This document shows positions 968 through 49,626 of a stretch of DNA of 64,000 nucleotides, in pieces. The DNA is from Marsupella aquatica (lineage: Eukaryota > Plantae > Marchantiophyta), in contig OZ316894.1 in assembly GCA_973895155.1 (NCBI GenBank), forward strand, positions 619,968 through 683,967, read 5' to 3'. Position numbers and translations under genes: made by a program. Position 1 is the first letter of the stretch; every line of letters starts with the position of its first letter. The notes beneath the pieces are model-generated. The model was not told the origin of the DNA. It searched no databases and saw only the letters and a program-made list of their open reading frames with translations.

Positions 968-2782
968 TTTTTAGTTTCAGAGTCGGACATCCGCGGGACA
1001 TGCGGGGAGTCCCGACCTCTGGGAATGACAGAGTACCAAGGGGAGGGGGTAGGACTAAGCTCGCCGGGCGAGTGCGGAGCCGGGCTCCGTTGTAGTGTGC
1101 ACCCTTGGCCTTGAACCTGTGCATTCCAGGGCTGTCGTGTCAACTAAGTGTACGCATATGTTCCCTTTGTAGTAAAATCCTTTCCCATCATTTTTCCTTC
1201 GTGTAAATCGAGATTGTATGCATGTGTGCGCATATGTGTGTGGGTTTCTCGTATATGGGTGCAGCGCTGGGCCGAACACACTACCCGAGACGGGCACAGG
1301 GTGCAGCCTGCGGGTAAGTGGTTGCGAGCACGGGTTGAGGACCTGTATCATCGAATCCGGATCGAAGGCGGACAGCACGAAGGCTTAGAAGCCCTTAAGC
1401 CGGGGTCGATCCTGCTATCGACTAAGGTACGTTCCGGCAGCGGAACACAAACCATACCTAGGAGGTGTCCGTATTTAGCAGTATGCGCACTTAGCGCTAG
1501 TTTACGAGAATAAGGTGCATTACGTGCTTCCCTTCCTGCCCGAACCCTCAGATTTACGAGGGATGTGCCCGTCTAAGCTGAAGTCTGAGTTAAGGCCGAA
1601 GCCTACGACGTGACAGTAGACCCAAAATTAGGAGAACATCGAATTGACCTCATGTTAGGGGCCAAATCATTTTGACAACCAATTCGAGGGATGAACCCTA
1701 AGTATTCCCTGATAGTCAAAACTGAAATCGACAAGCTAGTGGAAGCCGGATTCATCACTCCAGCCCTACACTTAGACTGGGTGTCTCCAATTGTGATAGT
1801 TCCCAAGAAAGCTGGTAAACCCAAGATCCGGGTTTGTCAGGATTACAAGAAGTTAAATGAGGCTACGTTAAAAGACCATTTTCCTTTACCCTTTACTGAT
1901 ATGGTGCTAGACATGGTAGCCAGTCATGAACTATACTCATTCATGGATGGGTACTCTGGTTATAACCAAATCAGGATTAGGCACGACGACCAAATCAAGA
2001 CGGCCTTCATCACGGAATGGGGGATCTATGTCTTCAATCGTATGCCGTTTGGACTCTGTAACGCACCAGCTATGTTCCAATGATTAATGGTGAACATTTT
2101 CCATGACTACTTGAGAAAGTTCATGGAAATCTTCATTGACGACTTTGTAGTATTTGGGAAGGCATTGAAACATGCTAAGTACCTAAGGAAGACCTTCATG
2201 AGATGCAGAAAGGTAGGTCTCAAGTTACACCCAGATAAATGTTTCTTTGGAGTAACAAAGGGGGTGCTGCTAGGTCACAAGGTATCTAAGAAGGGCATTG
2301 AGATTGACAAAGGTAAGCTAGCAGTATGGCTAGATATCATGCAACCTAAGAACATAAAGGATGTAAGATCCTTCTTGGGGTGCATTGGGTATTATCGTCG
2401 GTTCATCAAGGATTTTGTTGTGACGCCAATGACATGGTCCTTATTTTGTAATCTGATTAAGTAGGTTGCTGTATGCAAGGAGTAGCTATTGATATTGCAT
2501 AACAATTAGCAAGATGGCAAGAATAAGGGCAATCATGGCGTTAAGAGTAGGGAAATAAAAGCTATGTCGCGGGTGGTCGGCGACCACATCTCTTTCAATA
2601 TGTCACCAAATCCGGATCTGTAAAGAGCATTGGAAAGATCTGGTCAAGGCGAGTAAAATCGATATAAAACACTTGAGAAACGGAGGTGTATTAAGGAAGA
2701 TACGGCCCGATTAGTGTAACGGGTTAACTTGTGGCCGGAATTAGCAGATTCGGCTTCAGTTTCGGGTTAACCCAAGCTCGGC

Positions 2783-3131
2783 CACGGCTTAGCTTAGGTA
2801 AGCACGGCTTCAGCTTAGCTTAGGTAAGCACGGCTTCAGCTTAGCTCAGGTGAGAACGGCTTCAGCTTAGCTTAGGTAAGCACGGCTTCAGCTTAGCTTA
2901 GGTAAGCACGGCTTCAGCTTAGCTCAGGTGAGAACGGCTTCAGCTTAGCTTAGGTAAGCACGGCTTCAGCTTAGCTCAGGTGAGAACGGCTTCAGCTTAG
3001 CTCAGGTGAGAATGGTTTCAGCTTAGCTCAGGTGAGAACGGCTTCAGCTTAGCTCAGATGAGAACGGCTTCAGCTTAGCTCAGGTAAGCACGGCTTCAGC
3101 TTAGCTTAGGTCAGCACAGCTTCAGCTTAGG
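2783..3131. repeat. 26-bp tandem array (~13 units) in putative U3 of LTR C
   Basis: Units CACGGCTTCAGCTTAGCTTAGGTAAG and AACGGCTTCAGCTTAGCTCAGGTGAG are interspersed. Confidence 0.9.
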
Positions 3132-3690
3132 CTTAACCTAGGTTTGGATTAGATTGATCCCGGGTTAGACTTAACTCGGGTTAGCCTAAACCCTAAAACT
3201 TGGGCTCAGGTTAGCATAGGTAAGCTCGGATTCGGGCTCAGCTTAGGCTAGGTTAGCGGATAGCGGGTAGCGGCCTAACCCGAGACCACGGGTTAGCTCT
3301 ACTCAGGTTAGATAGGATGGCTAGGTTAGCCGAACTCGGGTTAGCTATGTAACTCGGGTTAGCGCAGCAGTGAGTACCCCCTCTCGGTTGCGGGGGCATA
3401 ACTCTCTATGTATTTGACCAAATCGGCTATAATTGACCTCGTTGGAAAGAGGAGCTCAAGCCGCTTCCAACGCTGCTATCCACGCAGCAAATGGTTGAAT
3501 AGAGAAATCGGGAGAGGAGGCACAAGCTCGCGAAAACCATGGAGGAGGGCCAAATCCGAAGTACATAGCCAATTCAAGATAGAAATAAAGTTGCGAGTTA
3601 GGGTTCAGTAGTTAGAGATAGTGGCGGCTCTGTTAGGGCTGGGATGGGGCTCCAACAGCGTAGTATCCACCCATTTGGGCTCAGTATGAG

Positions 3691-26500: not shown

Positions 26501-26854
26501 AGCCCCATTGAGCCACTCTTGTTTTCTAGACAAAACATCTAGTTTTAATTTCTTCCACACCCCTGAAGCATTTAGTTTACCAGCTTACTGATAACTACCC
26601 CTTCAACAAAGTATTTGATTACTTGGTTTGACAACATAAACTAAGTGAGTTTTGTGTTCAAGAATCATTTTCATTACAAGTAACTTTCAACTTAATTACA
26701 GAATATTCCATTGGTATCAAATTTAGGAATTGTATATCTAAGTTACTTAAGGTTGGGGTATCCAGCCCAACTCACGATTGGGATCATCTCAATCCAACCT
26801 TTCTTTGGTCAAACATTAAATTAGTGTGTAGAGGTTAACTGTCCGTACAAGGGT

Positions 26855-27760
26855 CATCCCTGTTAGCTGTTTGGATAGGGATCATCCTTATGTATTGTTT
26901 GGATAAGAATGATGTCTGTCCACCGTTTGGATAGAGATGATCCCTGTCCACCGTTTGGATGGGGATGATCCCTGTCCGGCTTTTGGATAAGAATGATGTC
27001 TATCCACCGTTTGGATGGGGATGATCCCTGTTCGGATTTTGGATAGGGATGATTCTTGTCCACCGTTTGGATAGGGATGATCCCTATCCACCCTTTGGAT
27101 GGGGATGATCCTTGTCCACCATTTGGATCCCTGTCCACCATTTGGATGAGGATGATCCCTGTCCACCGTTTGGATGGGGATGATCCCTGTCCGCCGTGAT
27201 CCCTGTCCACCGTTTGGATGGGGATGATCCATGTCCGCCATTTGGATAGGGATGATCCCTGTCTGCCATTTGGATAGGGATGATCCCTGTCCGCCGTTTG
27301 AGGTATTTGCTTTATGGGATCCCAATATGAAAGGTTTTACTTGATAGGACCGCTGAGTGATCCTAAGTGATCCGGACCTTGAATCATCCATGTCTATTGT
27401 TTGGACAGTGATAGACCCTGTCCGCCATTTGGACAGGGATCAGCTGTGTCTGCCCTTTGGACATTAACAGACACTATCCGCCGCTTAGGCAGGGATGATC
27501 CCTGTTTGCCGTTTGGACAGTGACAGACCCTATCCACCGTTCTGACAGGGATCATCTCTGTCCGGATTTTGGACAGGGATGATCCCTGTCTGCCGTTTAC
27601 AGGGATCATCTATGTCCACTGTTTGGACAGTGACAGAACCTATCTGCCGTCTGGACAGGGATCATCCCTATCCAAAGTCTGAATAGGGATCAGGGATCTT
27701 TGGGCTAGATAAGGATTGTTTAGGGACCTATTATTTTGCTTGATGGGGATGATCCCTATT
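26855..27760. repeat. 28-bp minisatellite with internally palindromic unit (two blocks)
   Basis: Consensus GATGATCCCTGTCCACCGTTTGGAYRGG with period 28 (e.g. 26936 to 26964). ATCCCTGTCC and GGAYAGGGAT arms are complementary. Confidence 0.88.
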
Positions 27761-30800: not shown

Positions 30801-31837
30801 TCAAGGCCGACCTGCGTGAGAAGGACAATATGCTCGATCAGACTTACGCCAAGATGAACCAGATGGAGTCTGTCATCATTGCAGAGCTCGACAAGGAGTT
30901 AAGAGCAACCCGGGAGGAGAGGGCTACCTTGAAGAAGGAATTGGAGGAAGCCCATAGGGAGCTGGAGGAAGCCCAGAAAGAACTGGAGGAGGCGCGCAAG
31001 GACCTGGACGAAGTACAGGAGGAGTTGGAGGAAAGCACGCGGAAGCTGGAGAACTTACAGCGGCGATCCGACAACCAAACGGAGCGGCTGAAGAAACAAG
31101 CCGCAGTATTTAAATGCTTGGCTTCATCAGGCCCAACTCCAATTGGGGCCACCAAGTTACCAGGAGTGGTACTGGCCGAAGAACAAGCCGCGCCACTTGC
31201 ACCAGTGCCGGAAGTAAGTGGGAAGGGGAAGGGACCAGCTGCCGAACCAGAAAAGAAGAAGAAGCGGAAACCTTCAGAGTCAAAGAGTAATACGGCTCCA
31301 CAAGCCGTGGTGACCAAGGAGGTAGACCCAGCACCGACCCCAGGCAGGGTCACGGCAGAGGATCCAACTACCCTAGAAGGAGGGGACGGTAAAGCCGATG
31401 CCAGGATACTCGGTAATGAAGCCGAGGTACCGAACCCGCCACTTGAGTGTGCAGGGGAGGCCGTAGCCGATGCTGAGGCCGTAGCCGATGCTGAGGCCGT
31501 AGCCGATGCTGAGGCCGTAGCCGATGCTGAGGCCGTAGCCGATGCTGAGGCCGTAGCCGATGCTGAGGCCGTAGCCGATGCTGAGGCCGTAGCCGATGCT
31601 GAGGCCGTAGCCGATGCTGAGGCCGTAGCCGATGCTGAGGCCGTAGCCGATGCCGAGGCAGAAGCCGATGCTGAGGCCGTAGCCGATGCCGAGGCAGAAG
31701 CCGATGGTGGACCCAGTCAGGCCGATGGAGAGTTGACTCAGTCAAGGGCAGGTAATCTGTCAGAGAACGAACCTACGGCAGTGGCTGAGGAGGAAGCGTT
31801 GGGGGCGTCCACTGGGGAACAGACACCGCTGCCATGA
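27893..31837 (+). CDS. Family B long ORF, near-intact (one stop at 28148; 1227 aa open downstream)
   Basis: ORFs 27887..28150 and 28154..31837 are in the same frame. Contains the plant-transposon-protein-like motif, a coiled coil and a KKKKRK basic NLS-like patch. Confidence 0.8.
31457..31708 (+). repeat. In-frame 18-bp tandem repeat x14 encoding EAVADA
   Basis: GAGGCCGTAGCCGATGCT units; the other B copies have only 1-3 degenerate units. Confidence 0.92.
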
Positions 31838-32829
31838 CGATGGTGGAGGGCCGCTCCTTTCAAGGAGGGCGGACGTGGAGGGAGGAGGCGAGAGTGGGCA
31901 GGGCGGGCGCGGATCTCTAAGTTTAGGATTAGGATTAGGACCAGGAGGCGGCCCTAACACTTAGCTTAGTGGGATTGCGGTTCCACTGGTAAGAACAACA
32001 CTTGTACCCCTGCCTCGCTGTACATAGGTAGATTCAGTTAGGTAGATTCAGTTAGGTAGATTAGGCTTACGCTGCAAGGAATTAGGCGGATCCGCGCCAG
32101 GATAAGTACCTGGGCTGCGGGGAGCTCAGGGCCTCTTCTTTAGCAAGTTTTTAGTTGCACCAGCCGGGCTGGGATCAAGTAGTAAGAGAAGCTCTCGGTT
32201 AGTCATACAGTGATCCTTGTGTATATTCATGTTTCCTCATGCCTAAGAGCTGAATAGAGTTGGCCTCACGGCTTAGTTCGCAGAGCTTGTGTATGAGATG
32301 TACTGTTTGTATGGCAAGTGCATGGTATGATTCAGTTAGAAGGAGTCATTTTGCTATTTGTGTGTCGCATTAACTTGTGTGAAGAGTGCCCACATCAACT
32401 AATAGAAGGAAAGTAAGCAAGGGAGTGAGAGTTGGATGTGTCGAGCTGAGAGAGGTCTTAGCGGCTTAACCAAGCCTATTGGGGATCATTCCGGTGGCGG
32501 AATCCAAATATACCTAACCAGAAGGGGGAAGACAAGGGAAGGCCTAGATTAGGCCGGCTTCGTATCTCATGACCCGATGAAGGATCTGTCCAGTATATGT
32601 GTGTAAACTGTTAATAGTAGTAGTAGAAGGAAGTTAGCAGCGTCCCATGCCGCTAAGCCGCAAAAACGGCCTCGCCAAGCGCGAAACCTGCGGGAATCGG
32701 CTTGTGCAGGGGGGTTTCTTGGGTTTAGGGAGCCATGGGACGCACCACACTTGGATAGGGTTCACACCTATCTGCTTCCTAGTTGGGACCATTGTTAACT
32801 AATTATACCTTACATTTCAAATTGTGCAG

Positions 32830-33730
32830 GTGAACACGTTGTAGGAATGACTGGAATATTTTTGAGAGGCGACAATGTGATATTGACAATTGGTGGTTAC
32901 GATGTTGCAAGCGGGACAATTCAAAAAATCAACCCGCAAGATAGTGTTCAAAAGATATTGTTGAGAGAGAATCGAATGGGCGTTCTCATTGAGAAAGTTT
33001 TTGACCGAACCACAAAACTACCATTTCCAATGCCTTGGGCAGAAAACCTTTTTGATGCCATTGATTCTTGCGTTATTTGGGATTTGTCTTGCGCATATCT
33101 ATCAACGATAACAAATTCTCAAAAATGCATTAGTGTAGGTAGTTGTTCAAATCGACCGAAGAGTAATTTGGAGAAAAATCCAATTGTAGAGGAGGACTCA
33201 TCGACCACTCTGAGGCAAGGGGATGAGGTTGAAATGTTCATCTTTGGGTGTTATGTAGCCCTTGGAGTTGTTTTCAATACAAATCCAATGGAAAGATGTC
33301 ACAACATTTTACTTGGTGAATCACGGATTAGTGTGAGGGTCACTGATGTCATTCATGGGAGTAGGGTTTTACCTTACAAACACAGTGGGGCTGAAACAAT
33401 TGACGAGGCAAAAGACTCATGGGTTCTCTGGGATGTGGCAGATGTCCAAAGTAGAAAGGGTTTCTCAAAGAAGGATGCGGGTGATGATATCAACATAGAG
33501 CGGAGTTTTGTTGTGGAGTCTCCTCAGCTGAAATTTCTAAAACTAATTGTGACTATTTCCAACGGTCAAATTGGATGTCAGAGTTGGTCAAACTATACAT
33601 CGGTTCAGATTGAACCAATAGGGTTGCCACGGGGACCATCACTGTGTCTCAAGAAACGGCGGCGGTTGATGATGAAATCCTTGGTGAGGACCATGTAGGG
33701 ATTGCTGTGAAAGATGTGGTGGAATCGGGG
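32830..33730 (+). pseudogene. Exon of CACTA/En-Spm TNP1-like accessory protein with three tandem domain repeats
   Basis: TTGTGCAG acceptor at 32829. Repeats are VASGTI..LPFP..DAIDSCVIWD, VALGVV..LPY..EAKDSWVLWD and a frameshifted third, VATGTI..ILGEDHVGIAV, truncated near 33730. Confidence 0.55.
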
Positions 33731-33738
33731 TAGCGAGG

Positions 33739-34294
33739 ATCATCAGTTATCAGTTTTGCCGCCTTGAAATTTCTGAATCTCAGCTGAGCAGCTGAGATAG
33801 GGCCTTCGCACTTTTGCGCATCTTAGCTGGGGCACCTGAGATTGACTCAATCTCAGCTGACCTTGCCGAGATTGGCCTAAGGACAAAAAAATGGGAAAAA
33901 ATTTAAATTTTTTTTTCAGAAATTCTCAAAAAAAAATTAAAATAAAAAATTTTCCGACAAAATTTGGTGTCCGTATTGTACGGACATCGGACTATCTCGG
34001 CGGGTCTCGCCGAGATGCAGTGTCCGTACGGTACGGACACCCATAGTGAAAAAAAAGGGGGGGAATTTGTTTTTTTGAGAAATTTTTTAAAAAAATTTTA
34101 ATTTTTAGTTTTTTTGTCCTTACGCCAATCTCGGCGAGGTCAGCTGAGATTGAGTCAATCTCAGCTGCCCCAGCTGAGATCCGCAAAAGTTCTTTTTTCG
34201 CATTTTTTTTCGGCGCCCCAACTTGGCGGCCTCTCTAAGATGACGTGGCGACTGATATCAGGTGGACTGATGGAAAACACTAATAACTGATGAT
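33739..34294. repeat. Nested fold-back palindrome (MITE-like, or terminal structure of the adjacent transposon)
   Basis: Outer IR ATCATCAGTTAT/ATAACTGATGAT; ~80-bp arms at 33810-33891 and 34110-34190; inner self-palindromic TGTCCGTA..TACGGACA pair and central ATCTCGGCG/CGCCGAGAT. Confidence 0.8.
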
Positions 34295-34437
34295 GTAGCT
34301 TTACTCTGGTGGAATCACAATACTTTCCCAATTTCCATAGGGGAGTAATTACTTTGGTTCGGTGGCGGATTGATTCAACAAAACTACTTGCAAACGGGAA
34401 ATTTTTGTCAGACATTTTGGTTGAAGGTTCAGAGAGG

Positions 34438-35853
34438 ATGGAGACGGTGGATAGGGATGATCTCTATCCAAATGTAAATGATAGGGGAATGCCGCGCACA
34501 AGGCCATACAATTTCAACAAGAGGACTCATGTAGATCCGATTGAAAAGAAGAGAAGGCTATTGGAAACCAAGGCAGTTTCAAAAACAACGGAAGCTTCAA
34601 TTGATGAAATTAAAAGAGAGAATTGTTGCAAGCAGAAATGTTGTCGGACTATGCCAAGAGAAGACATAGAAGATATCCAGATAGAATTTCACGGGATGTC
34701 TAGCGAGTCAAAAACATCACACATTTTCAACCTCTTCCACTACAGAGAAGATGATGTTCGTGATAAGGGGCACCATGTTCTCAAGGGTATGGTCGTATGT
34801 AGACATGCATTTGCAATCATCCATGGCTTTAGCCACACGAAATATTATGATTACAAAAGGAGATATGTGGAGGGTTGCAAAATTGGGTTCCATGGAAACA
34901 CGGGTTCCAAATACCTTGCATGCACGAGCTTTGTTGGAGGATTTTTTGACTCGAAATACAGAGCCCATGCCTCATATACCTCATGCTGGGGCTCATGGGA
35001 CAGACTCCATTGAGTATCGTCTTCTAGCATGTTACAAGAAGTTGGAGATTTTGGAAGATGTGAGAACAAAGATGAAGGAAGAGGGGCTTCCCCCAGTTAC
35101 AGAGAATACTCTGTACGAGATTTGGAGCAAATCATTCGTAAACTTCAATTTCCATAAAGATGGTGCATTTGCCAAGTGTACTCTTTGTTGTGAATACAAA
35201 GATAGTTTGATGCGAGAAAGAAGGAAAAAAGAACGTGCTGAAATTGAAGAAAAACGAGCACAACATCTTCGTGAGCAGATGTCACGTAGATATGTTTACT
35301 ATGCTCATTGAGTGATGGCTAAGCAACATCTAGGGGAATATCTTTGCATCATTCACGACAAGATGGATCAACCAAAGACGTGGATTCCAAAAATGGTCAG
35401 TACTCCTAAATCGCTTTCGGGTCATGGGATGCCACTACCTATTGCTCTCACAAGGATGTTGACCCACGGAAGGGATCCAGGAGTCTATGCACACTTTAGT
35501 GTCACTGGCCTTTGGCCAGGAGATGCTAATTTCATGGTGACATCCTTGGCTAAGTGTCTTCGAGACCTTGAAGAGTACAATGGAGAGAAGACAGATGACA
35601 TGTTGGATGGCCTTTATTTGGAACCTCATAGACCTTTCTTTCAAGCCCTTTTTTACTTTGATGCATTTTTTAAGGGATATTTGGAACCAAAGAGTATTCC
35701 AATGAATAGGTATATTGGTTCTGAAGATGCAACCGAGAGTCAAACGGAGACGGTCTCCATCCAACATGGTGAGGATCAAGGAGAGGACATGCATGGGGAA
35801 CAAGGCAGTCAATCTTTCAAGCCCTTGCCAAGGCACCTAACATTGCAAATGGA
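34438..35853 (+). pseudogene. 5' part of DUF7869-type (tentatively Sola-like) DNA transposase
   Basis: Motifs CCKQKC, VCRHAF, FAKCTLC, YLCIIHDKMDQPKT..P, THG and LPRHLTLQM. It breaks off where LQxDN is expected and contains a frameshift and a stop. Confidence 0.6.
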
Positions 35854-38800
35854 AGCTTCCAGCCCCAGCGGTCCAATCCATAAAAATATCACGAGGTTGG
35901 GTGACAAGCTCAATGACAGATTGCATAAACCCAACAGACAGGCGAGCATTTCCAGAAAACTCCATTTGCGGGAATGGATCGGATTTGAGAGAAGGGAGTC
36001 CGATCAAATTGGTGACCAAGGGGTCCTCACTGATGGAGAGTGGACGGAATTTAGGGTCTTTGGGAATTTTGCATTTCCCATTAATTCAACCAAATATGTC
36101 CAGCCTGAGGGTAAACATCTGCGGAAAGCAATCCCAAGTGTCAGTTGGCAACTCCAGGTTAAACAAGTTATATTTCAAAATGCGACATAGTTAAGAGTAC
36201 ATGATTACCTGACAGTCTGTCTTTGCCGCGTACATCGGGACAGACATTACAACATTATGCGTGCATATGCACTGAAATTTTCTCGATTCCTGACAGGCAG
36301 CAATGACTTGAGACATGGGATCATACTCCCCATTGTGTAAAATTGCAAGGAATCCATCATCTGATAGAAATGGATCCATGGACTTGAAAAAAGATCTAGC
36401 CATGGAGTGATCTGGAGTGTTCCATTTAGGAACCTTCTTATCTATGATCGTTGGTTTGAACCCGGTTGGTAGGTAAATGAAACCCGCATCCACTCCAAAC
36501 GATCTTTCTTTTCCTCCCCGCACAACACCCTTCTCTTTATATCCCGACTTAACGAGATCCTTCCCCCACTTCTCCACATTACTAACCCATTCAGGTTTTT
36601 CCCCCTTGTTGAAAGTCGAGTCAAAATTTTTGGATATGCTTGTCTCAACCATGGCATGACGAGACACTCTAGTTTTGAAGTTTCCAACTTCACGTTGGAC
36701 ACCAGATGCTGCAACACTCTCCCTTGAAGAAGGTCCACCTTCGATAGCTCTCTTTCGTTTCTTCCTGGTACTTGTGGCGTCAACCAGAACTATTACCTTC
36801 CCCTTGTCGACAGGAGTAATGGGGTCCGATCGAGCTCCGGTGTTTGCCTCAGAAACTTCAGGTGTAGCATCCACTTTAGTATCTCCTATTCCCGCAGTAT
36901 TAGACTTCCTCCCTCCTAAATTACCAATAAGTCCTAGTTAGAACAAGTAAATCCCGAGTATTCAAACAAGCTAGCGCCAGGCGCTAACCAAATGCAAATC
37001 ACTTAGGTTACAACAAAGGCCTAAGAATGTAGAAAGAAATGTGAATTCGCATGATAGTTCAAGCCAGCGCCAGGCGCTGGCCATACTAGGGAACACTATA
37101 CTCACTTTTCCTCCCAGATTTTGTTGACTCGCTTGGTGCTGCTAACTTCACTTTTGCTTTCGCTCGAGGTTTGCGACTTCGGTCCACATGAACAATAGTC
37201 GTTTCACAGATACTTTGCAAGTCAGTGGCAGACTTGTCTACATCATCTAGCAGGCCCTGCTTCATGTCGGACACAATTTTTGCTGGTATGTGGGACTTTG
37301 AAAGCTTATGGAATGCATCTTTCTCCCTTTGATCAAAAGGAGAATCCCATCTATCTGTATCTAGATACCAGGGGCAGTGAGTTCTCTCCCATTCTGTCGT
37401 AGGTCTTGGAGGAAATATGCCCTCCGCTGGGTACATGGAGTACAAATCAGCTATGGCGTCATCCTCACTTATTGTAATCCACTTCATGAAAGCTGCAGGA
37501 TATGCCCAGAAGTAATCAGGTTTGGTTACCTCCATGTGCATGTAGAACCTGTAAAGATACCTTTTAGCCCGCTTCTGGTTTTTCTGGGTATAGTCTTCTT
37601 TGTCTGGATACTTTGAAGGCCACATAGTGTGAAAGAACTTACTCTTCACAGAATCACCATATCTCTTGAATTCATTTGTAACAAACTGAACGAGATCATC
37701 AAACGAACCACAATTCCACTCTTCCAATCTAGTGGCGGGCATAGTTTGCTCTACTTCACGCAGACATGAATGTAACATGTTGATAACAATTCCCTCTACA
37801 CTATTCCAAGTGATCCAAGTATGACACCATTGTTTGACTGGGTCGTCGTTAACACTTGCCGGGTGGAAAAACTGTCTCCGTAGCTCAGGATTGCAATGTG
37901 CCACAAGTAGGATGCTCTGCAACTTTGGGTCTAGGGCAGAAACAGCACTGAACAATCGGGCGCGGTCCATTGTACATACGACGGCGTCAGGCTTCTTCTC
38001 TCTCTTGTTTCTCTCTGTGACAGCATACATTTCTGCACATGTACTAAGAAAATCTTCAAATTCAGGACTTAACAAGGGCGTAATTTTTGATGACTTCAAT
38101 GCCCAGTCTTTGGTTGCGTCCTTCATCATGGCCGCATGGCGTTTGGAAATCTTGTCCACCGACCAGGGACTCCCTTGAGCCTCGACTGCCTCCATGTCAA
38201 GCTTGAATTGGTGAGAATAGGACTTTATCTTATTCTCACATAGAATGTAAACAAGAGCTTCCTGTGGCATCTTCTTTGTATACCATGACCCCTTCCGAGT
38301 CTTTAGCCGAATGCTCTCAAACTTCTTGAAATTAGCCGGGTCAATCAGTTTACTGTAATACTCAAGGTCATGCGCCAGAATTTGTTTGATTCTATCTGCA
38401 TCGAGAATCTAGGATGGCTCAACAACTGCTTGGCCAAGCCTACACGAAGAGATGCAACGAGTTAGAGTCAAAGTACAATTTATCTATAACCAGCGCCGAG
38501 CGCTCTTAAATAGAACACTCGCAAGATTCAAAGAAGGTACCGGAAAAGAATGAGAACTTACTGATTCACGGTGTGCATAGCTGCCTCAATTTCAATAAGA
38601 GATCCCTTGTCTCCCTTAAATATTGTGCAGAGCACTCAAGGATGGTATTTTGGATTGTCAGGGTTCTCCTCGGTAACAAGCGTCCATGAGTACAGCCTGT
38701 GATTTCCATCGAAGACAGAGAAAATCTTATCCTTCAACACGAGAAAATCTGGATCGGCCTCGCATTCAGCCTCAAACTTCTCGTTCTCCAATTGCCAAAT

Positions 38801-39313
38801 TGGATCCCATGACTCACGAATTTCCTGGGTACAGGTTAGAACAATTCCATTCTCATCCGTTGGCTGCACATAGAAACGCATTCCTATGGATGAATTGTAA
38901 CCCATACTGCGAAACGAGTCTTTCAGCTTCTCGATGGAAGAGCTATCTTTCTGCAAAGTACGAACCACCTCCATATGAACCAATCGGCATAGAGGGATTT
39001 GAGGCGGCTCCTTGTCAAATCCACGAGAATCCTTTCCAAAACACATGACATGTTTTGAGATGAGATCAGTCTCTGCGAGTGCGCAGTCCGAAACATCTTG
39101 GATCGCAATCGTGTCGAGGTTCTCCATCTTTCTACGCAGAGATTTAGGAACCAAAACAACGCTAACAGAAGTAGGAGACAACAACTTTGTGGAACGAGTT
39201 ACACGACGTGTATAAACTGAACCAGTAAACGAAGACTGCGAGGATTCAGAATAAGCTCGCTCTTGGTCAAGAACAACACTATACCCTCTGGATGAAGAGG
39301 AGAATACCTCCAT
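35851..39313 (-). pseudogene. Four-exon ParB/Srx-like plus N4/N6 DNA methyltransferase-like fusion gene (3'-truncated, 3 premature stops)
   Basis: Exons 39313-38562, 38439-37106, 36933-36209 and 36118-35851 join in frame through GT-AG introns. ParB-like motifs IPLCRL..VVR..KLKDSF..GY..VFDGNHRL; MTase-like motifs VDAGFIYLPTG, FLSDDGFLAI and VIELVTQPRDIFMDWTAGAGS. Confidence 0.7.
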
Positions 39314-40276
39314 CGTCTTCCTTCCAGAAGCGTACGAACTATCGTACAATGAAATTATGGAACTCTAATCAACTCTCAATGTGTAATATATTCTAGAAGG
39401 AGGGTGGAGTTCAGCGGAACTCTTCAATTAAAGCGAGAAGCTCGTAAGTTTGGCGGATTCCAACGTATGTATGCTGAGAACTTAATTAGCTAAATCAAGC
39501 GGTAGAAGAAGCGTAACACACACGGAACTCAGAAGTTACCGTTAAATGTTACCGTTATGACCGTTTTCCTCCCTCACTCGGAATACTAGTGCCGGGCGCT
39601 ATTATAAACAACTTCCCTTGAAGTAGATAATTTGGATGATTGTCATGGCAGCGCCCGGCACTAGTAAAAACAACAGCTATAGAATAGGTCTTAAATGGTG
39701 CCTCAAATACATAAATTTCATCAAAACAACCCTATATTTAAAGAAATGTCTATTGTTTTAATGGTTTTTGGGAAACATTACTTGCATCCTATACTAGCGC
39801 CCGACGCTAGTGATAACGAGTATTTTTCATCCATAGTTTTAAAAGAATTCAAATTTTCATTGATCATTTCAATCCAATTATTTCATAGTATTGATGGATA
39901 TCTGGAGGGTTTTTTGTATACTAGCGCCAGGCGCTAGTATGGAATATCGAGATTTGGGGCATATTATGTTGGAGACATTTTAGTTAGCGCCAGGCGCTAC
40001 TCAAATTGTTCCAACTATACAATATCTTAGAGTTTGTTAAAGATTTTTGTGGTGTCTTTTTTGGCATTATGTATGCGTCTGACATCCGGACTTATCGGGG
40101 AAAAACGACAAAAATCATTTATGTCGCCAACGGATCCTATGTCGACTATGTTTGATGTCTTATACAAACGGATCTGTTAACGTGAAGTTCCCATGTTCGA
40201 CTGATATAAGCTCCATATTACCATAGACTTTTCTTCCTCAAAACATTACAGCCCTCGTTATTTGTTTTCGATTGCA

Positions 40277-43200
40277 ATGTCTCGGTCCATCGTTCTATCC
40301 CGATTCGGGACTGGAGATATTGTGAGCATCCCCGTCCCTGTGGAAGACACGTACAAGCAGGTCCGGGAGAGATACCTTTGCGGGAGATTTGATTTGAGGA
40401 TGAATGATATTGAGGCCATTGTTCGAGAGCTCAAAACCAGTGATGACATCGAAGATGCAGCAACATTCAATGTGGATGATGGTGAACGGTTTTGGCATCT
40501 ATACGCGGGGATTTTGTACTCACTTCGAGTAAGACAACATGAAGGACCGTCCAGTGTCCCCCAAGTTCCATTTGATGTTGTCAAGATTTCTTCTAGTGAA
40601 GATGGGGATCACACTCCAAGTCCTACGTTGAAAATGAAAGTCCCGCAACATGCTGTCGTTAAAGGTGAGACTCCAGGAAGCTCTAACCAGTTGGAGGTCA
40701 TGTATTGGCGGAGTGCAATGGATACGTTACTCAAATCCACTGGTCATAGCGAGTTATCAAGGTTCATATCAACGGGTGATTTCAGACATGAGCAAGTCTC
40801 CTGTCTGCCAACTAAGTACAACGGGAACGTTGTGTTTGAATTGCCACCCATTGACAAGATGCTCTCTAAAGGCTCTAGGCTTAGGGACATGGACTGTGCC
40901 AAAGATTGCTACATTTGGACACGCATATTTCCAACTACCGCGAACGTTCAGCCAAAAAAACTTTGGCAATTCGGTAAGGTTACCTGTACGAGATTCATTG
41001 AATGTCGGAACAAGTCCTACGAGTACTTCCAAAGGAAGAAGAAGGCAAATGCTAAGGCATGGCAGGGTACTCCAAAGCTTAGTGGTCAGTATGCTGTCGG
41101 ATCTTTTATCGAAGAGGGCGGTGTTGTGTGTCATTATTGTGATCAGATTCCTTTTTGTGTCAAGTACTGCCCTGCCCGTTTGTTCTATATGTACCCACAA
41201 GTATTACTTGATGCGGAAACATGTAGTCATATGTCCCGCCTGGTGATTCATATAGGTGAGCATAACCATCCAAGTAGAAAAACCTTCTGTAGGAGTGCGG
41301 AGAAGATGGCTGAGGATTTAATTAAAAAAAATCATGAAGCCAATCCTCTGGCAAAACCAGCTGGGATCTTGAATTCTGCTACAGAGTCCATAGTGAAAGC
41401 TCTTTGCGAACATGTTGACGACATGGTCGATATCGAAGAAACTGAAATATGGAAGTCTCTGATGGTACTTTCCACTCCCCAGAAGTTTGCATCTCTTTGT
41501 CGGAGCGTTAGGATAGACCAAAAGGGTCGGGGTGAACTTGATTTTCTCTTGCAAATGCAAAAGAAGATTAACCTGTCGTTTCTCTAGAGGTATTTGCTCC
41601 CGGGTCAGGGATGTCAAGACGATAGGCCTCACACCTTTAAAATGACTAGGAAGGGTCACGGTTCCGGTGTGGATCTTTTGAGACAGATGCAACCTGGTGG
41701 AAGACTCGAAGGAGCCTTGGTCAGTTTTGATGTGATGCAGCGTATCACAACCGATTGGTTTACTTTTAGCGCGCATGTCTACAACCATAACTTCCGTGCA
41801 CTTTGTACAATTTTCACATGCGAGTTGAAAGGTGAAGACACTGAGTCTTTCGAAAAGGCTTGGAGAGTTATGATTGAGGTTTGCAAGGAGAATGGATTAC
41901 AGGAGGTTGTCATCCAAGGGTTTATGGCGGACAATGCACAAGCTGGATGGAATGCTGTGCGGAATGTTTTTTTTGGTGGACACCCAGACCCGGAGAGGGA
42001 GCGCTCTGATGCATTTCACTTTTATCAATCTTTCCATCGGCATTCCAAGGAAGGAGTACTCAAAGAATGTCAATCGGAACATCGGAGACTTTGGGAGAAA
42101 CTAAGAAATGCTCCAACATTTGTGGTAGCGTATCGCGTGTCCCGAGAGATTGTGGTTTGGTGGCAATCAGGAAACTGTGTCCCTGGAAAGCTCATGATGC
42201 TACAAAGCTGGATATCCTGGTGGGTTGTTTGATGGTGCCAGTGGGGCAATTTTATTCGAGTGGTATGATATCCATCTCCTCTCTTGTCTTTCATTTCCAT
42301 CAACTTTATATTAGCGCCAGGCGTTGGTATGATTTGCTCGTATTTGAGTCCAGCATGTCCATAAAGTTCTAGAATCATAATCTAAATTGTATTTCACGTA
42401 TGTTATAAATACTTGTCGGAGCCAGCGCCGGGCGCTGGTAATACAATGCTAGTACTGATTATTGCATTCGGACTATGGCAGAGCAAAAGCGCAGAAGAAG
42501 GTGCCTTGATTCCAAACTGTACAGGGTCAGAATCAAGGCATGCGTCTATGAAAGCCTGGCTACAAAGAAAAAAGTTGGTCTTTTTGAAGCATGCAAAGTG
42601 GACCAAAACCGAGCCCTGTCTCAAGTTGCGAGATACAGTGCATATCAAAAAGGGTTGAACAGAGGAAAGGGACCGACTATATGGGAATTAGCGTTCCGTT
42701 CCGCCGATCAAGCAGGTTTGCCGAGGTTATTTGAAGATGCAACCAACATGCTTCTTTCCAACGCGGCGGACTTTGATTTGGAAAGAAGTACTCCCCTTAA
42801 CGGAGATATCGTGACCAAGTCAATGAAGAGAAAGGGACATGCAACTGGGACTGTCTCTCCACAAGACTCCCATCAGCATGACACCGTTCTCATAACCACA
42901 CCAAATACTCGTGGTTTGAAAAGGAAAAACCTAAACAGAACTGACTTTGCCTCCATTCCCTCAAATTCTAATGATCCTGTGACAAGAGTGGTGAATCTAG
43001 GATGGACCATCGAGCGGATCCTCCTTACTGAAGGGACGGGAGGCAGAATTTTGGCGTTTTTTACAAGTGCGATTGGATCTTATTGATGTCTATAACCTGG
43101 GCTGCACAGTGATAGGATCAAGATACACGTGGAGACGTGTCCGGCATGCAAACCTCACCCAGTCTAGACTGGACAGGTTTTACCTTAGTGGTCTTGGAGG

Positions 43201-46200
43201 TTGGATTGCTGGCACAGTGGAGCTAACTCATGATGGGGGCTCGTCACTGTCGGACCATGATCCCATTGTGGCTGTTTTGCGCTTTCAGATTGAGGAGAGG
43301 GATTCGGAAAGAGGTAAGTCCCACTTTTTTAAAGCTAACCCTTACGTACTCCGGGATCCGAAGAATATTGAGCAATTGGAGGCTGCCTGGCGGGCGGGGG
43401 GGGGTGGGCGAGGTGAACCCTCACTTGCGTTTCTCTCGTGCATGTCTGAGACTACGAAAAAAATATATGGAGTTGCAATCCGCACCGAGACAGTCTGAGG
43501 AGGAGTTGAACTTTCTGAGAGATAAAGTGAGAATACTTAAGACTACTATTGTAGATGAATGCTCACTGGATGAACTGACAGAGTTTCTGCAATGGGAGGA
43601 CATGCTTCACGTAGCTGAAGTTGAGACGGCGCACCAGGCCAGACGGTTAGCCAGAATTCGGTGGCTGGGAGAAGGGGAGGAATCAACTAAATTTTACTTT
43701 GCCACAGTCAAGGCTAAAAGAGAGAGAGAAGCTATGAGGATGCTAGTAAAGGAGGATGGATCGGTACTTACAGATTTCAAGGACATCATTGGGGAAGTAG
43801 AGCAGCAATGTGAGGCGCTTTACTCTCCTGGGCAACCATCTGAGGAGGAGCTACTAGAAAGCAGGTGCAATAGGGATAAGCTATTGCGGAGTACTAAATC
43901 GGCATTCACGGCGGCGGAGATACACAGGATGGAGGCACTTCCTACGATCTCCGAGGTGAAAGAGGTGTTGTGGCTTCTCCCGGAGGACAAGGCCCCTGGG
44001 ACGGATGGGCTCACGGCTGAGGTTTACAGAGCCTGTTGGGAGTTCATGAAGGATGATATGGTGGCAATGATACAGGATTTCTGGCTCACAGGCGAGTTGG
44101 CTGCTGAGATCAAGGATGGCCTGATAAAGCTGATACCAAAAAAACCTGATAAAAGATACTTGAAGGACTGGCGCCCTCTGACGATGCTTAACACTAGCTA
44201 CAAAATCCTGGCCAAAGTGATCGCTCTACGAATTAAGCACCTGCTATGTAACCTGATCAGTCCTCAGCAGACCGGGTTTATCCCGGGTAGACATATCTTA
44301 GAGAATATTTCGCTTGCTTGGCTTACAAGTGACTGGGTTCAGAATTGCAGGAAGGGAGCATTATTCCTAAAACTTGACTTTGAGAAAGCATTCAACAGGG
44401 TTAACCACGAGTATCTCTGGGAGTCTATGTTGCTGCTGGGATTTAGTGGTAGGATTGTGAACATAGTTAAAGCCTTGTTCTCTAATGCCAGCTCTCGAGT
44501 ACTAGTCAATGGCTTTCTTAGCAAATATTTTTTGATGTGTCGGGGGGTGAGGCAGGGATGTCCTCTCTCCCCTCTTCTATTTGTGATTTCTACCCAACCT
44601 CTCATGGATTTCTTGGATGCTGAGCTTGCGGCTGGTCGACTTGCTGGTATCCAGGTTTCAGATGTGCTTACAGTGTGCTACAGATTGTTTGCTGATGATG
44701 TGGGGATGTTCATCCCTGCAACAGAGGAAGCGTTTAGGGATGCTACTACGGCTCTGTCATGTTATGAAAGTGCATCTGGTGCTAGGCTGAACTTACGAAA
44801 ATCTGTTATCATCCCACTTGCTTTGGACCTAATTCCAGACTGGCTCAAGGCTACAGGCTGCAAGATTAGTGAGCAAGGTGAAGTGCAGAAGTATCTGGGT
44901 GCTCCATTTGGTATTGGACTCTCAGTGGGTAATTTACATCGCTTCTGCCTGGATAAGGTTGCGGCACGCTTGTCCTCTTGGTCAAATAAATTGTTGTCCT
45001 TCACAGGTCGAACGTTGCTGGTGAAACATGTGCTCATGGCAATACCGATATATCACGTAATATATATGAAGGCCTCGGAAGGGCTGGCAAAGAAACTGAT
45101 TGCGCTGTGCAGGGATTTTCTATGGGGTTATAATCTTGAGGGCGGGAAGAAGATTCCGCTGGTGGCATGGGACAAGATGGCTCGCCCTAAGGTGGATGGC
45201 GGACTGGGGTTTCGTGACTTTAGAAGTCACTCTGATGCGCTACTTACTCAGTGGTTTATGAAGGCCTTGGATTATCCCAACACGGAATGGGCTGGCATGC
45301 TTGCTGGTAATCTGAGTCTTATTGGATGGCTGAATTTCAGGGTGATTAGGCGAAATCACTACACATTTGCAGATAAGCTGCTTTTATGTACTCCAAGATC
45401 TTGCTGCGGGCTGACATACACTTGGGGAATCTGGAAGGCCTGGGAGGCTTTGAGAGCAAATCTTTCCTTTGTCCCAGGGATTGCGGGCTTTCCTGGGAGA
45501 TGGAGTATACAGGACGCATTACGCTGTACACAGGGCTTTAATACTTGGCCTTCGGCACACATAGAGTTCACTGTGGAAATCTGTGGGAGGCTTGGGATAC
45601 GGGTGATTGCCGACTGCTGGAATGCTGAGGCGCACCAATGGAAGGACTTTTCTGGTAGATGGTATTTGCTTCGAGGGTGGGCGCTGGCTCACAGGGACAG
45701 ATGCCATCAGTTTCTACTTGTGATTGGCAGGGGACGCTGCTGCAATGGTGGGCTGGTGTCAGGTGCTCGTTGTTGGCGTTGGCTTGAGATGGGGGTTCCA
45801 CTGAAGAGGTTCACAATTCCTAACAAACACGCGTACCAACTTCTAAGACCTAAGGGCTTGGACTACCAAAGATGGAACAGAATTTGGCTCACCAACTGGA
45901 CGGGGAGGTATGGGGTAAGAGATGGCATGCTCTATGGGGTTCGGACCTGTCCACTAGAGGAAAAACCTTTCTATGGCGAATCATTGTCGGTGGCCTGTTT
46001 ACGGGAGCAAGGGCCCTTACTATTGGTGCAAGTGATGGTATCTGTCGGCTATGCCCTGGGAGGCTTGAAAGTATTCCTCATCTGTTCGTCCAATGTGTGC
46101 ATGCTGCTGAGTGCTGGAGACTATGCTATGACTGCTGCCTGGGAGTTATGTTTGCACCTGGGCAGGATCTTCTAGACAAGGTGGTGGCCTCATTTGGTCG

Positions 46201-47840
46201 CAGTCCATTGAGGGTGGCTCGTCTATTCCTACTGTTTCAAATTGTGTGGATGATTTGGCTGGGACGTAACACACAGATGTTCAAGGAACTTGGGCGCAGA
46301 TCCTTTGATGTAAGATTGGTTCTTTCTGAGACGGTTTCGCACCTGCATGGGGCCTCTCTACGCTTCCCGTCAGGCAGTAAACACATTCGGCTTCTTAGGG
46401 CTAAAGAATTAATTGAAATGGAACGGAGGCGCTGGTTGGTGCGTAGAGATGGACATGTGACTTCGGGCTGATGATGCTTAGAGTAGGTTAGGCTCTTTGA
46501 TTGGTGCTGTGGCTCTGGTGGGCTTGGGTTGGGCTCACCTGTGCGGCTCTGTTTTTTGCTTTTGGGGCTTACCCTTGTGTTATGGCTACAGGCCTTTAGG
46601 TTGCTCATGGATCTGGCTCTTGCTGTCGTTGACTGGCTGGCTGGGGTTGGGCTCTTTACCGGGGCCGTATATGATGTCTGGGCGTGCCCTGTTTTAGGGG
46701 TGCCCTGCTGGCCTCCTGCGGGAGTTGTCCTTTTGTGTTGTTTGCTTCCCCCGCCGTGGGGTTTTCACGGGTTATTTCTATAAAAGTTAGAAAAAATTTC
46801 CAAGGAAGAGTGGTGAATCTCTCTGGTATGGACACATCAGATGGTGATACTGATTCACTGGACAATACCCCTCAAACAACCCGTACAACAAGATCCACAA
46901 AACCTCCGCTCAGTGCACTAGCCTCACTTCAGAATCCACTTTCACGCACAATTGTGCTCGAGAAGGATGTCCCTCTGGGGCAGTGGCAGCTGCGACGGAC
47001 GTCCAAGTATGGAGCAGGTCCCCAGTGTAATGGGACACTCAATGGGAGTTCTGATCACGATGAGTGTCGAAATTGTATCAAGAAGGTTGGCTTCCATTTG
47101 TCTAACGGTGTTGTTGGAATTGCCGTGAAGGGCCATCGTCTCTTCAGGGGCGAACCGATCTCCAAAATGATTTGGTTCTGCCCAAACCAAACCTGTTATA
47201 AGAGTTGTCCGCGTCGTGGTGTTCATCAGCTTCCTCCTCTTCCTGAAATTTTGCCTGTTCTGAAGGGTACGAACCTATCTCCTTCTGAAATCACGTTCCT
47301 CGAAGAGCAAGGACTTGTCTTGGCCCGAACAACAGGATCGAGTCGATCTGCGCCATCTTTGTTTGACCTCAAGATAAATGTGAACGTGTTCCCAGAAACA
47401 ATAAGGTTTTTGGAGCCAAATGTCCGGCTGGGTAGTCGGAATGGGAGGAACTCAAGACCTCGGTCTAATCTCACTGTGGGTCACACTAAGCGAATGGAGT
47501 TTGCACGACAAGAAGAGATGAGTTTGGATGGGGAATGGAATGTTCGGACTGGAAATGCTTTTGGAAAGCAATTTCGAGTTCGAACCCATGAGAACCTTCG
47601 ATCACCAAGCACGTACTTCGTGCAAATCTGTATCTTCCCTGCTTGCTCGTACATGCCTTGTACGAGCACATGTCGTACATGTACGAGCACAAGTCGTACA
47701 TGCCTTGTAAACATCTATACTGGGTGTACATAAATGTTTTCAAACTTGAGGTTGAGGAGTCGACTCTTTGTAGCCAACCAATTTTGACTGTGGGCGAAGT
47801 CAGGCTTGTCTTGGAGAGGCAGAACTTGAATGGTTTATAA
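40277..47840 (+). pseudogene. GCM-like/MULE-type DDE transposase with C-terminal SWIM finger, split by a LINE
   Basis: Cys/His N-terminal domain ending HIGEHNHP; motifs SFDVMQR, GFMADNAQAGWNAV..DAFHFYQS, SESRHAS and GKGP; SWIM-like YFVQICIFPACS..PCKHLYWV. Likely intron at ~42264-42481; stops and frameshifts present. Confidence 0.7.
42999..46805 (+). mobile_element. 5'-truncated L1-like LINE (EN C-terminus, RT, zf-RVT)
   Basis: 15-bp TSD AAGAGTGGTGAATCT at 42984-42998 and 46806-46820. Motifs SRLDRFY, SDHDP, KAPGTDG, LDFEKAF, QGCPLSP, FADD and CRLC..HLF..C. Confidence 0.93.
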
Positions 47841-48531
47841 TAGGGGCCAAAACTTCCGCATAGGTCGTTCAATATAACGGATAGTCACTATTTTGTCTTT
47901 ACCCAACGGATATGTTACTTGTTTTATTCAGTATTTTTTTATTAGCGCCGGGCGCTGCTTTTATTATGTACGCGTGTAGTGTAAGCATTACACTATGTTT
48001 TATTTAAAATGTGTAAGTTGATATCATTTTGTTTTATCTTTCAAGCCACGTTTATTCAATTATTCTGAAATAAATCGTTAGGAGGTGTTTTGTCATTTGT
48101 TTGTCACGGTACTTGGTCCATTTAAGTGAACTCATTTTGATTGAGTTCATTTGGACACTACTCTTCACTTGTTCTGTGGTGGGTCCCACCCTAAGGTTCA
48201 CTTTTTAGCTTGGACGAATAGTGATATTTGAATGAATGTTTCATTGAGTATAGTCCTCATACCGTGTTCAGTTATCTTCCAGATCAAAATGTTGTTGCGA
48301 GGGAGGACTGCTAGTACTCTTCATCCATCGGATGGCACACAATAATTGTTTGTTTTAAACCTAATTCACTTCAGAAAAATTTTGTGATTAGCGTAGTTTT
48401 TCATTCGGACCAAAGGGCTATGGTTGATGCAAAACTGGTAACAGGGAATCGCTTACTGGTAACAGTTATATTTGATTGTTAACAACAAAAAATTTCCTGG
48501 TAACAGGTTTTCTGTTTTCTATTTTCTGTCA

Positions 48532-49626
48532 TGGCTATCATACCCCAGATTGATACAAGAAATTGCATCTTACAAAGAATATCTTCAAACTTTCAAAGTT
48601 AAAGATATTCAAGGTCACTCAAAACCCGTATCATTTCTTTTCTCTATGAGAGATAATGTACCAATATTTCAGTATATGTCCCATGTAAAGCAAGCTTGGG
48701 CTCCAGTTGGAGGAAGGTGCATTTGGGCAACAGATCCGACAACAAATTCTCTTCTTTTACCTAGTGGAGAGCCCTTAGCTAAATCCATTGGAGAGATACA
48801 CAAAAAATCTGAAGAGATTATCCCATTTCTTAACAAGTACCTTGATTTTTTGAGAAGGAGTTGCACTGATGAGACATCTATAGCATATAAGGAAAGATTT
48901 CCTCTTGTGAAATATTGGGAGAGAATTGTGGAGTTGTTGACAAATGGGCTCGCACTAGAAGGGGAGGGAAGTACTCAATTTCCCTTGAAAAATGGATTTT
49001 GGCCTAAGACTAACCACGGCACTGGTTACAAGGTCAACCAACCGGAACAAAGTGGTCCTCCAAGTGAAGATGAGGAGAATGCGGAGATGACGGCTCTTCA
49101 AAATGAGGTCTTGGAAGAGATGGAAGATCAAGCAGCACCATTTGTTGGATCTCGAGCTGAGAGAGAACAAGGACGGTGGATTCCCCTACAGGATATTTGT
49201 GAAGGGAACTTTGTATTTCTTCGACCCGAGGATGACTGGGAGAATAAAAATGGTGGAGGTCATTTTTGGTTGGTGAGAGCTTTGGGTTCGGTGGACCCTA
49301 AGCATGAAGTCCCAACTACATCTCCAACAAACCCTCCTCTGCCTCAACAATATGCTCCAATGTTTCCAGTTGAATGGTGGAGGCCTAAACACTCGAAACT
49401 TGATGTGACTAAGAGTGCACGGTATCTAAACTGCTTCATGTCCACTAAGACATGGGAACAAGATCCAGGGGTTAGTGAGAACGCTCAACATTGGCAATAT
49501 GCAAATTCTGCAATGTATGGTTTTAAATCTGGAATGAAAGAAGAAAACATGGCGGGTAGAGGTTTGAAGATTCCTCGAAATGCTCTACAAACTGTCCAAA
49601 GTTATCTTCAAAGGATGGACAAGTAG
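48532..49626 (+). pseudogene. 3' part of the DUF7869-type transposase
   Basis: PRLIQEIASYK..IQGHSKPVSFLF..PIFQY..WAP resembles the C-terminal region of this family; same strand as 34438-35853. Confidence 0.5.

Follow-up and report, generated by a model that had tools for sequence, protein, structure and literature searches.

The accessory gene of the Ectocarpus transposon Sola1-1_Ec32 encodes a protein of 1104 amino acids (aa) that consists of a ParB-like and an N4/N6 methyltransferase domain and is located opposite the transposase gene; the report describing it also cites green and red algal cases, with Iyer 2011 for the green ones (PMC12477816). Here we analyze a gene of this kind on the minus strand of a 64,000-nucleotide (nt) stretch of Marsupella aquatica contig OZ316894.1 (the window; all coordinates are positions in it). 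The gene, spanning 35854-39313 and denoted ParB/pseudo-methylase gene, combines a ParB-like domain with a methyltransferase-like domain whose usual catalytic motif is replaced, and it lies head-to-head with a transposase-like gene with which it shares a 15-bp palindrome. We lean, if only slightly, towards the explanation that a DNA transposon, likely of Mutator type, carries it as its second gene, that this copy is truncated and dead, and that the intact product would be a self-recognition protein binding the element's own palindrome.

Comparison with known systems

Compared by description, the present gene resembles the Ectocarpus case in its length (approximately 1,100 aa), its combination of a ParB-like and an amino-methyltransferase domain, and its position opposite a transposase; for the Ectocarpus protein, binding and modification of the element that encodes it have been proposed (PMC12477816). 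The differences are a Mutator-like partner, relatives in the liverwort Calypogeia fissa, a lost motif IV, and the palindrome. A preliminary description of the locus, made from the sequence alone, had presented the gene as a hidden, new kind of fusion. The kind of gene is already published; new are the liverwort-type relatives, the Mutator-like partner, the family-wide character of the motif IV loss, and a candidate binding site. Within the literature consulted, no land-plant or palindrome-bearing case of a ParB plus methylase accessory gene was found.

In red-algal Plavaka elements, PAG3 consists of a ParB-like domain and a 2-oxoglutarate (2OG) oxygenase, and PAG2 of an N6-methylase and a SET domain (bioRxiv 2025.02.11.637652). 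Shared with the present locus is a transposon-borne ParB-like domain beside inverted-repeat arrays, there together with a separate N6-methylase gene, and homologues are said to be located on Mutator elements of Chondrus; the repeats form tandem arrays in the red algae, whereas they are dispersed copies in introns here (bioRxiv 2025.02.11.637652). According to the same preprint, VANDAL/VANC is the only system for which binding and modification of its own element have been demonstrated.

In that system the accessory protein VANC21 of the Arabidopsis element VANDAL21 binds a motif in non-coding DNA, and its anti-silencing activity was demonstrated by experiment (PMC5735166). The likeness to our locus consists of a transposon accessory protein and a short motif enriched in the element's non-coding DNA. 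The VANDAL21 motif, again compared by description, is of 9 bp, non-palindromic and arranged in same-direction arrays, and the sections of the report on VANC21 mention no ParB or methylase domain (PMC5735166).

Gene structure, relatives and decay

The gene consists of four exons and three introns, and is cut at a junction with foreign DNA:

38562..39313, minus strand: exon 1, with ATG, Ser-rich N-terminus and the ParB-like domain at about residues 105-250 (Box I-like helix, DGNHR); premature TGA at 38638-38636
38440..38561, minus strand: intron 1, 122 nt, GT-AG, with one degenerate palindrome at 38491
37106..38439, minus strand: exon 2, middle region of about 445 aa; premature TAG at 38411-38409
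36916..37105, minus strand: intron 2, 190 nt with the corrected acceptor, with palindromes at 36972 and 37065
36209..36915, minus strand: exon 3, encoding a basic linker (RKKRKR) and the first half of the methyltransferase-like domain, in which YLPT (36475-36464) occupies the motif IV position
36119..36208, minus strand: intron 3, 90 nt, in frame, contains TAA
35854..36118, minus strand: exon 4, truncated; premature TGA at 36088-36086, S-adenosylmethionine (SAM) motif I DWTAGAGS at 35878-35855, then cut
35853..35854, no strand: chimeric junction of the truncated gene and a DUF7869-like gene (plus strand); several contigs from 3-4 runs have loose ends here, on either side

The structure was compared mainly with two sets of sequences. 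The first comprises 63 relatives identified by HMMER with the exon 3-4 region (E<=0.001) among 1.84 billion representative proteins. The second comprises contigs from four of seven listed sequencing runs aligned to positions 35500-39500, whose depth is no copy number. The preliminary description had claimed that three introns join separate open reading frames (ORFs) in frame into more than 900 codons, and its introns, all GT-AG, indeed yield a single frame of 1030 codons with three stops. Its acceptor of intron 2, at 36934, was rejected. The acceptor is most likely 36916, because the distance from the end of the CTRAY branch word to the AG is then exactly 21 nt in all three introns (3 nt with 36934), and because a divergent copy, read by hand from a contig, retains the branch word and the second AG while its first AG reads TAC. 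The correction shifts the acceptor by 18 nt in frame, removes six codons, and results in 1019 codons up to the truncation.

The splice junctions are backed by homologues. The alignment to metagenome protein P0002 (46% in exon 2) begins precisely at the intron-1 acceptor, which is the start of exon 2, and stops at the exon-2 donor; P0003 (37%) has the same exon ends. In at least ten homologues the ORF stops at the intron-3 donor or shortly beyond it, and two read through an intron in the same position. Homologues also have W or R at all three premature stops, each of which, as noted earlier, is one transition from CGA or TGG: R at codon 226 (TGA) in a contig end from another organism, translated by hand, W at codon 261 (TAG) in P0002, and R at codon 948 (TGA) in P0006, P0007, P0018 and P0021, all of them joined at the intron-3 site.

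Other copies of the gene continue past 35854 with SFIAGDFSGR, which completes motif I, into the rest of motifs I-II, and DUF7869-like copies continue from LQM past the junction into DNSGKDNKNQ (contigs, translated by hand). A natural stop at 35836 was rejected, as this terminal stop lies in foreign DNA beyond the junction. Because of its three stops and lost C-terminus this copy is a pseudogene, truncated inside SAM motif I. We hold the anatomy of the locus (exons, stops, truncation and neighbours) to be correct with high confidence.

The gene family is multi-copy. For three runs, 647-1182 contigs per run align to the 4-kb stretch, introns included, and since their similarity ranges from 99+% to below 90%, many divergent copies exist; no second copy is found inside the window. 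The gene is likely a plant gene: P0006 and P0007 are gene models of the liverwort C. fissa, and the other eight of the ten homologues looked up are hypothetical or without name. An abundant class of related contigs (3 of 4 runs) lacks exactly 90 bases at intron 3, and a class of like depth retains intron 2; the missing bases likely reflect presence or absence (gain or loss) of the intron among subfamilies of one transposon family. Neither exon 3 nor exon 1 retrieved homologues in word-index searches, tblastn against phages gave nothing or matches at E 3-10 on unrelated genes such as gp32, and PDB searches with single sequences gave noise only. The metagenome locus L001 was rejected as a homologue, its match being a chance similarity of 22 aa in bacterial DNA. 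For the middle region encoded by exon 2 there is no Pfam or PDB match, and an exon-2 profile against PDB returned noise.

Methyltransferase-like domain

The domain is recognized by family comparison. An alignment of 40 rows (38 homologues and two pieces of the window) matches 22 beta-class sequences by hhalign at 96% (E 4.5e-9, 211 columns). The family profile has seven PDB matches, all of them to amino-methyltransferases (5hek is the best, at E 6e-7; CcrM, E 3e-4), including M.MboIIA and the N4-cytosine (N4C) enzyme 8s9m. PF01555 is found at E<=0.05 in 18 of the 63 homologues, 2 of them above cut-off, always on profile positions 163-221. The order of motifs is the permuted one of beta-class enzymes, as the preliminary description had recognized, with the motif IV region preceding SAM motif I at a spacing of 169 aa, within the 135-363 of the members. 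SAM motifs I and II are kept over 28 rows (DW[TSA]xG[EG]G..AGD.CGR.VIG.E[DN]R); this copy has motif I only. Judged by these profile matches, the domain is a beta-class amino-methyltransferase fold with SAM-binding motifs kept and the usual catalytic motif replaced family-wide.

The replacement concerns motif IV. The preliminary description had placed YLPT at the position of DPPY. The family profile agrees, as hhalign sets ADxxFIxLPT of the family on VDLIFADPPY of the beta-class enzymes; on this copy alone the placement is at chance level, its best site being reached by 252 of 500 shuffles. None of the 36 homologues that cover the site has [DNS]PP[YFW]. Its second and third positions are conserved as L (31) and P (34), followed by T/N (30) and G (24); the first position is A, Y or F (11, 10 and 8 of 36) instead of D/N/S, and the fourth is T/N instead of an aromatic residue. 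The family consensus reads xLP[T/N]G, then VPxWNxW, with W in 30 of 36. Since a 312-base contig with 2 differences from the window also carries YLPT, the motif is not private decay of this copy. The homologue alignment thus extends the non-canonical motif IV from one gene to the family, and altered chemistry or a non-catalytic binder, the alternative posed earlier, was the right question.

On this copy by itself the evidence comes from motif I. Its block reaches 15.2 bits (0 of 500 shuffles), and a profile built from 33 of 76 viral beta-class matches finds motif I alone, with 1 of 1000 shuffles as good. A joint test of three blocks (0 of 300 shuffles) used windows picked after seeing the sequence, is driven by motif I, and is not counted as independent. 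The copy has no Pfam, NCBIfam or PHROG match for a methyltransferase domain, and a profile of 7 phage fusion methyltransferase domains does not match the spliced protein; N6_N4_Mtase clusters appear in the atlas at 0.86, which is a lead only.

With the PF01555 enzymes (CcrM, YhdJ, M.MboIIA, bdelloid N4CMT and Marchantia DN4MT1) the family shares the order of motifs IV and I, the SAM site of motifs I and II, and the profile match; it differs in having no [DNS]PP[YFW]. The earlier link to the N4-methylcytosine (4mC) enzymes of bdelloids and Marchantia therefore holds at the level of the fold only, as those carry SPPY and TSPPY, respectively (TSPPY: bioRxiv 2021.02.12.428880). Further eukaryotic captures of amino-methyltransferases have been catalogued (PMC4738411). 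Since motif IV of the catalytic enzymes was not recovered, the protein is, by its sequence, not a member of the catalytic beta-class methyltransferases. The intact family protein probably does not transfer a methyl group to amino groups, given the established chemistry of these enzymes and the finding that mutation of SPPY to APPA abolishes the activity of bdelloid N4CMT (PMC8885841). The motif IV loop presumably still does something, because it is conserved.

This conservation is also what speaks for an amino-methyltransferase whose active site is remodelled but functional and which would mark the element encoding it, for example with 4mC in the CCNGG core of the palindrome. Both xLP[T/N]G and VPxWNxW are strongly conserved, SAM motifs I and II are kept, CCSGG is targeted by bacterial N4C enzymes near bdelloid N4CMT (PMC8885841), and self-modification is what has been proposed for the algal genes (PMC12477816). 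We consider such activity unlikely: in addition to the deviating positions 1 and 4 of motif IV and the inactive N4CMT mutant, the family consensus has no equivalent of the HP that is nearly invariant in the beta-class alignment.

ParB-like domain

DGNHRL (38710-38693; DGNHR 38710-38696), previously proposed to match the ParB GxxR motif, is present, and DGNHR fits Box II GxxR of the ParB-CTPase/Srx fold. Box II GxxR is described for ParB proteins, with a nucleotide preference that is not predictable from sequence (PMC12704722). The ParB-like assignment itself is weaker than that of the methyltransferase domain, for reasons given below. Phage fusions of ParB_N and N6_N4_Mtase have the same domain order; our gene differs from them in having approximately 580 residues between the domains instead of about 100, in its introns, and in its location on a eukaryotic transposon. 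No ParA was found, and a search for ParB_N in four viral records gave none. Single-sequence AlphaFold2 models have a mean local confidence (pLDDT) of 30 and 34 and show no usable fold. A Pfam match of exon 1 to TRAPP (E 0.01) was taken as chance.

Palindrome and partner transposase

The DNA beyond exon 1 comprises the following features:

39314..40276, no strand: shared upstream region of the head-to-head pair, with five palindromes at 39587, 39649, 39795, 39922 and 39985
40277..47811, plus strand: Mutator-like transposase gene with motifs HIGEHNHP, FMADNAQAGWNAVRNVF, FHFYQ and SWIM-like PCKH; two stops and a frameshift; split by a long interspersed nuclear element (LINE)
42999..46820, plus strand: L1-like LINE in the transposase gene (RVT_1, E 4e-30) with the 15-bp target duplication AAGAGTGGTGAATCT
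47943..47957, no strand: last palindrome copy, downstream of the transposase gene

The transposase-like gene starts 964 bases upstream of the ParB/pseudo-methylase gene on the opposite strand. Its motifs suggest that it is Mutator-like. Its frame is continuous once the LINE is removed, and an intron at about 42263-42450 contains two palindromes (42312 and 42423). A short tandem duplication at 47631-47730 shifts the frame within the SWIM-like finger. A Pfam match to NRN1 was taken as chance.

The palindrome YAGCGCCNGGCGCTR occurs in 11 copies, counting the degenerate one in intron 1: three in introns 1-2, five in the upstream region, two in the transposase intron and one downstream. Allowing at most two mismatches, TAGCGCCNGGCGCTA has 10 matches in the window against 0.06 expected, all within 36972-47957; an additional site with three mismatches is located at 4836. 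The palindrome is found in none of the exons, intron 3, the LINE or the DUF7869-like DNA, so that all 11 copies are non-coding, where non-coding DNA makes up 21% of the element (the last boundary was chosen afterwards). The core is CCNGG, and in two copies the variation is symmetrical (CAG...CTG). Translations of the palindrome also occur in the intron run-ons of two distant homologues (P0003, LAPGAS; P0033, SARRY), with 0.16 and 0.03 expected over 65 proteins. We give even chances to the palindrome being the candidate site bound by the intact ParB/pseudo-methylase protein. The preliminary description had placed the spliced protein inside a transposon, which is supported, and had missed both the partner transposase and the palindrome array.

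The palindromes might instead be internal sites for the transposase or a host factor, with the accessory protein having another task such as help in transposition or scaffolding. Transposases commonly bind repeated motifs of their elements, palindromes also occur in the transposase intron and 3' flank, and no domain for DNA recognition was identified in the accessory protein. This account is nevertheless quite unlikely in our view, as eight of the 11 palindromes are located within the accessory gene or immediately upstream of it and not at an element end, palindrome-like words follow accessory-gene introns in two distant homologues, and the red-algal PAG3 ParB genes are likewise described beside inverted-repeat arrays (bioRxiv 2025.02.11.637652).

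Because the palindrome is shared with the transposase gene, the ParB/pseudo-methylase gene is assigned to the Mutator-like element and not to the DUF7869-like neighbour. Its adjoining the DUF7869-like gene, and the published Ectocarpus case being a Sola1 element, could suggest instead that it is part of the DUF7869 (Sola-like) element next to it, or a host gene trapped between transposons. Both versions appear very unlikely. Both genes are interrupted within a motif at the junction, which other copies do not have, and the palindrome occurs in the Mutator-like gene and nowhere in the DUF7869-like DNA; on these grounds the DUF7869 element was rejected as carrier. The many divergent copies speak against a single host gene.

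Neighbouring DNA

The DNA of the window is eukaryotic and rich in repeats, including pieces of Gypsy, Copia and L1 type. A second transposon-like block (32799-35853 and 48540-49626) contains a 299-aa ORF that includes two repeats and matches nothing in Pfam, and, at approximately 33740-34290, nested inverted repeats containing palindromic words of their own. The DUF7869-like gene (Pfam E 0.1) likely has a C-terminal piece beyond the Mutator-like element. The block may represent a further element of two genes that has a palindrome of its own. Positions 7845-32412 contain long coiled-coil ORFs of low complexity, without Pfam assignment, in nested copies of both direct and inverted orientation, one pair being 2818 nt long and 97% complementary. 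Two inverted pairs, 99% complementary and about 48-50 kb apart (1-852/50571-51422 and 1261-1615/49809-50163), are recent copies of one element in opposite orientation. Tandem arrays consist of 18-nt units at 31385-31762, 28-nt units at 26841-27690 (the unit being partly palindromic) and 26-nt units at 2696-3182.

Proposed function

In the favoured explanation, that of a self-recognition protein encoded by a Mutator-type element, the palindromes would act as parS-like loading sites. The ParB-like domain would be a nucleotide-gated loader, for which CTP and ATP are indistinguishable, and the protein would spread along the element, carrying the methylase fold with it as a SAM-binding, likely non-methylating module. 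This pseudo-methylase might shield or flip cytosines, so that the element escapes host silencing by 5-methylcytosine (5mC) in the way VANC does for VANDAL elements; VANDAL21 is itself a Mutator-like element. The full version of this proposal, with a nucleotide-gated ParB-fold clamp at the intron palindromes and a SAM-binding fold with a rewired site (xLPTG, WNxW) shielding or counter-marking liverwort Mutator-like elements against 5mC, is tentative and rather doubtful.

Several results weigh against the favoured explanation. Neither MULE nor SWIM of Pfam matches the transposase gene, and neither terminal inverted repeats nor the 9-11-bp target-site duplication of a Mutator-like element were found, the left end being lost at the 35853/35854 junction. 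Most homologue run-on tails have no palindrome word (2 matches in 65 proteins; 0 in frame C, where 1 is expected). Pfam gives no ParB match for this copy, the NCBIfam match to DGQHR is weak (residues 183-233, E 0.046), and a profile built from 7 of 96 phage ParB-methyltransferase ORFs aligns Box I only (residues 119-143; equalled by 7 of 500 shuffles) and leaves some 50 additional residues ahead of Box II. For exon 1 the best atlas cluster is fungal DUF3723 (0.95), which we take to be ParB-like, having found no paper that names both; clusters bearing ParB_N and DUF6551 follow at 0.88. No helix-turn-helix was identified in the accessory protein, and the middle methyltransferase block of this copy is not above chance (457 of 500 shuffles). 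Eight of 22 exon rows with variant codons (among 40 of 778 rows) are synonymous, which is uninformative.

The algal papers, in the parts that deal with ParB-methylase accessory genes, propose self-binding or self-modification with neither a defined site nor an analysis of the active site. The locus described here supplies a family from land plants, a specific candidate site of 15 bp and a catalytic motif replaced in 36 of 36 homologues, so that the idea becomes testable. If the full version of the proposal is true, the liverwort elements would carry a second, independent VANC-like system made of prokaryotic parts.

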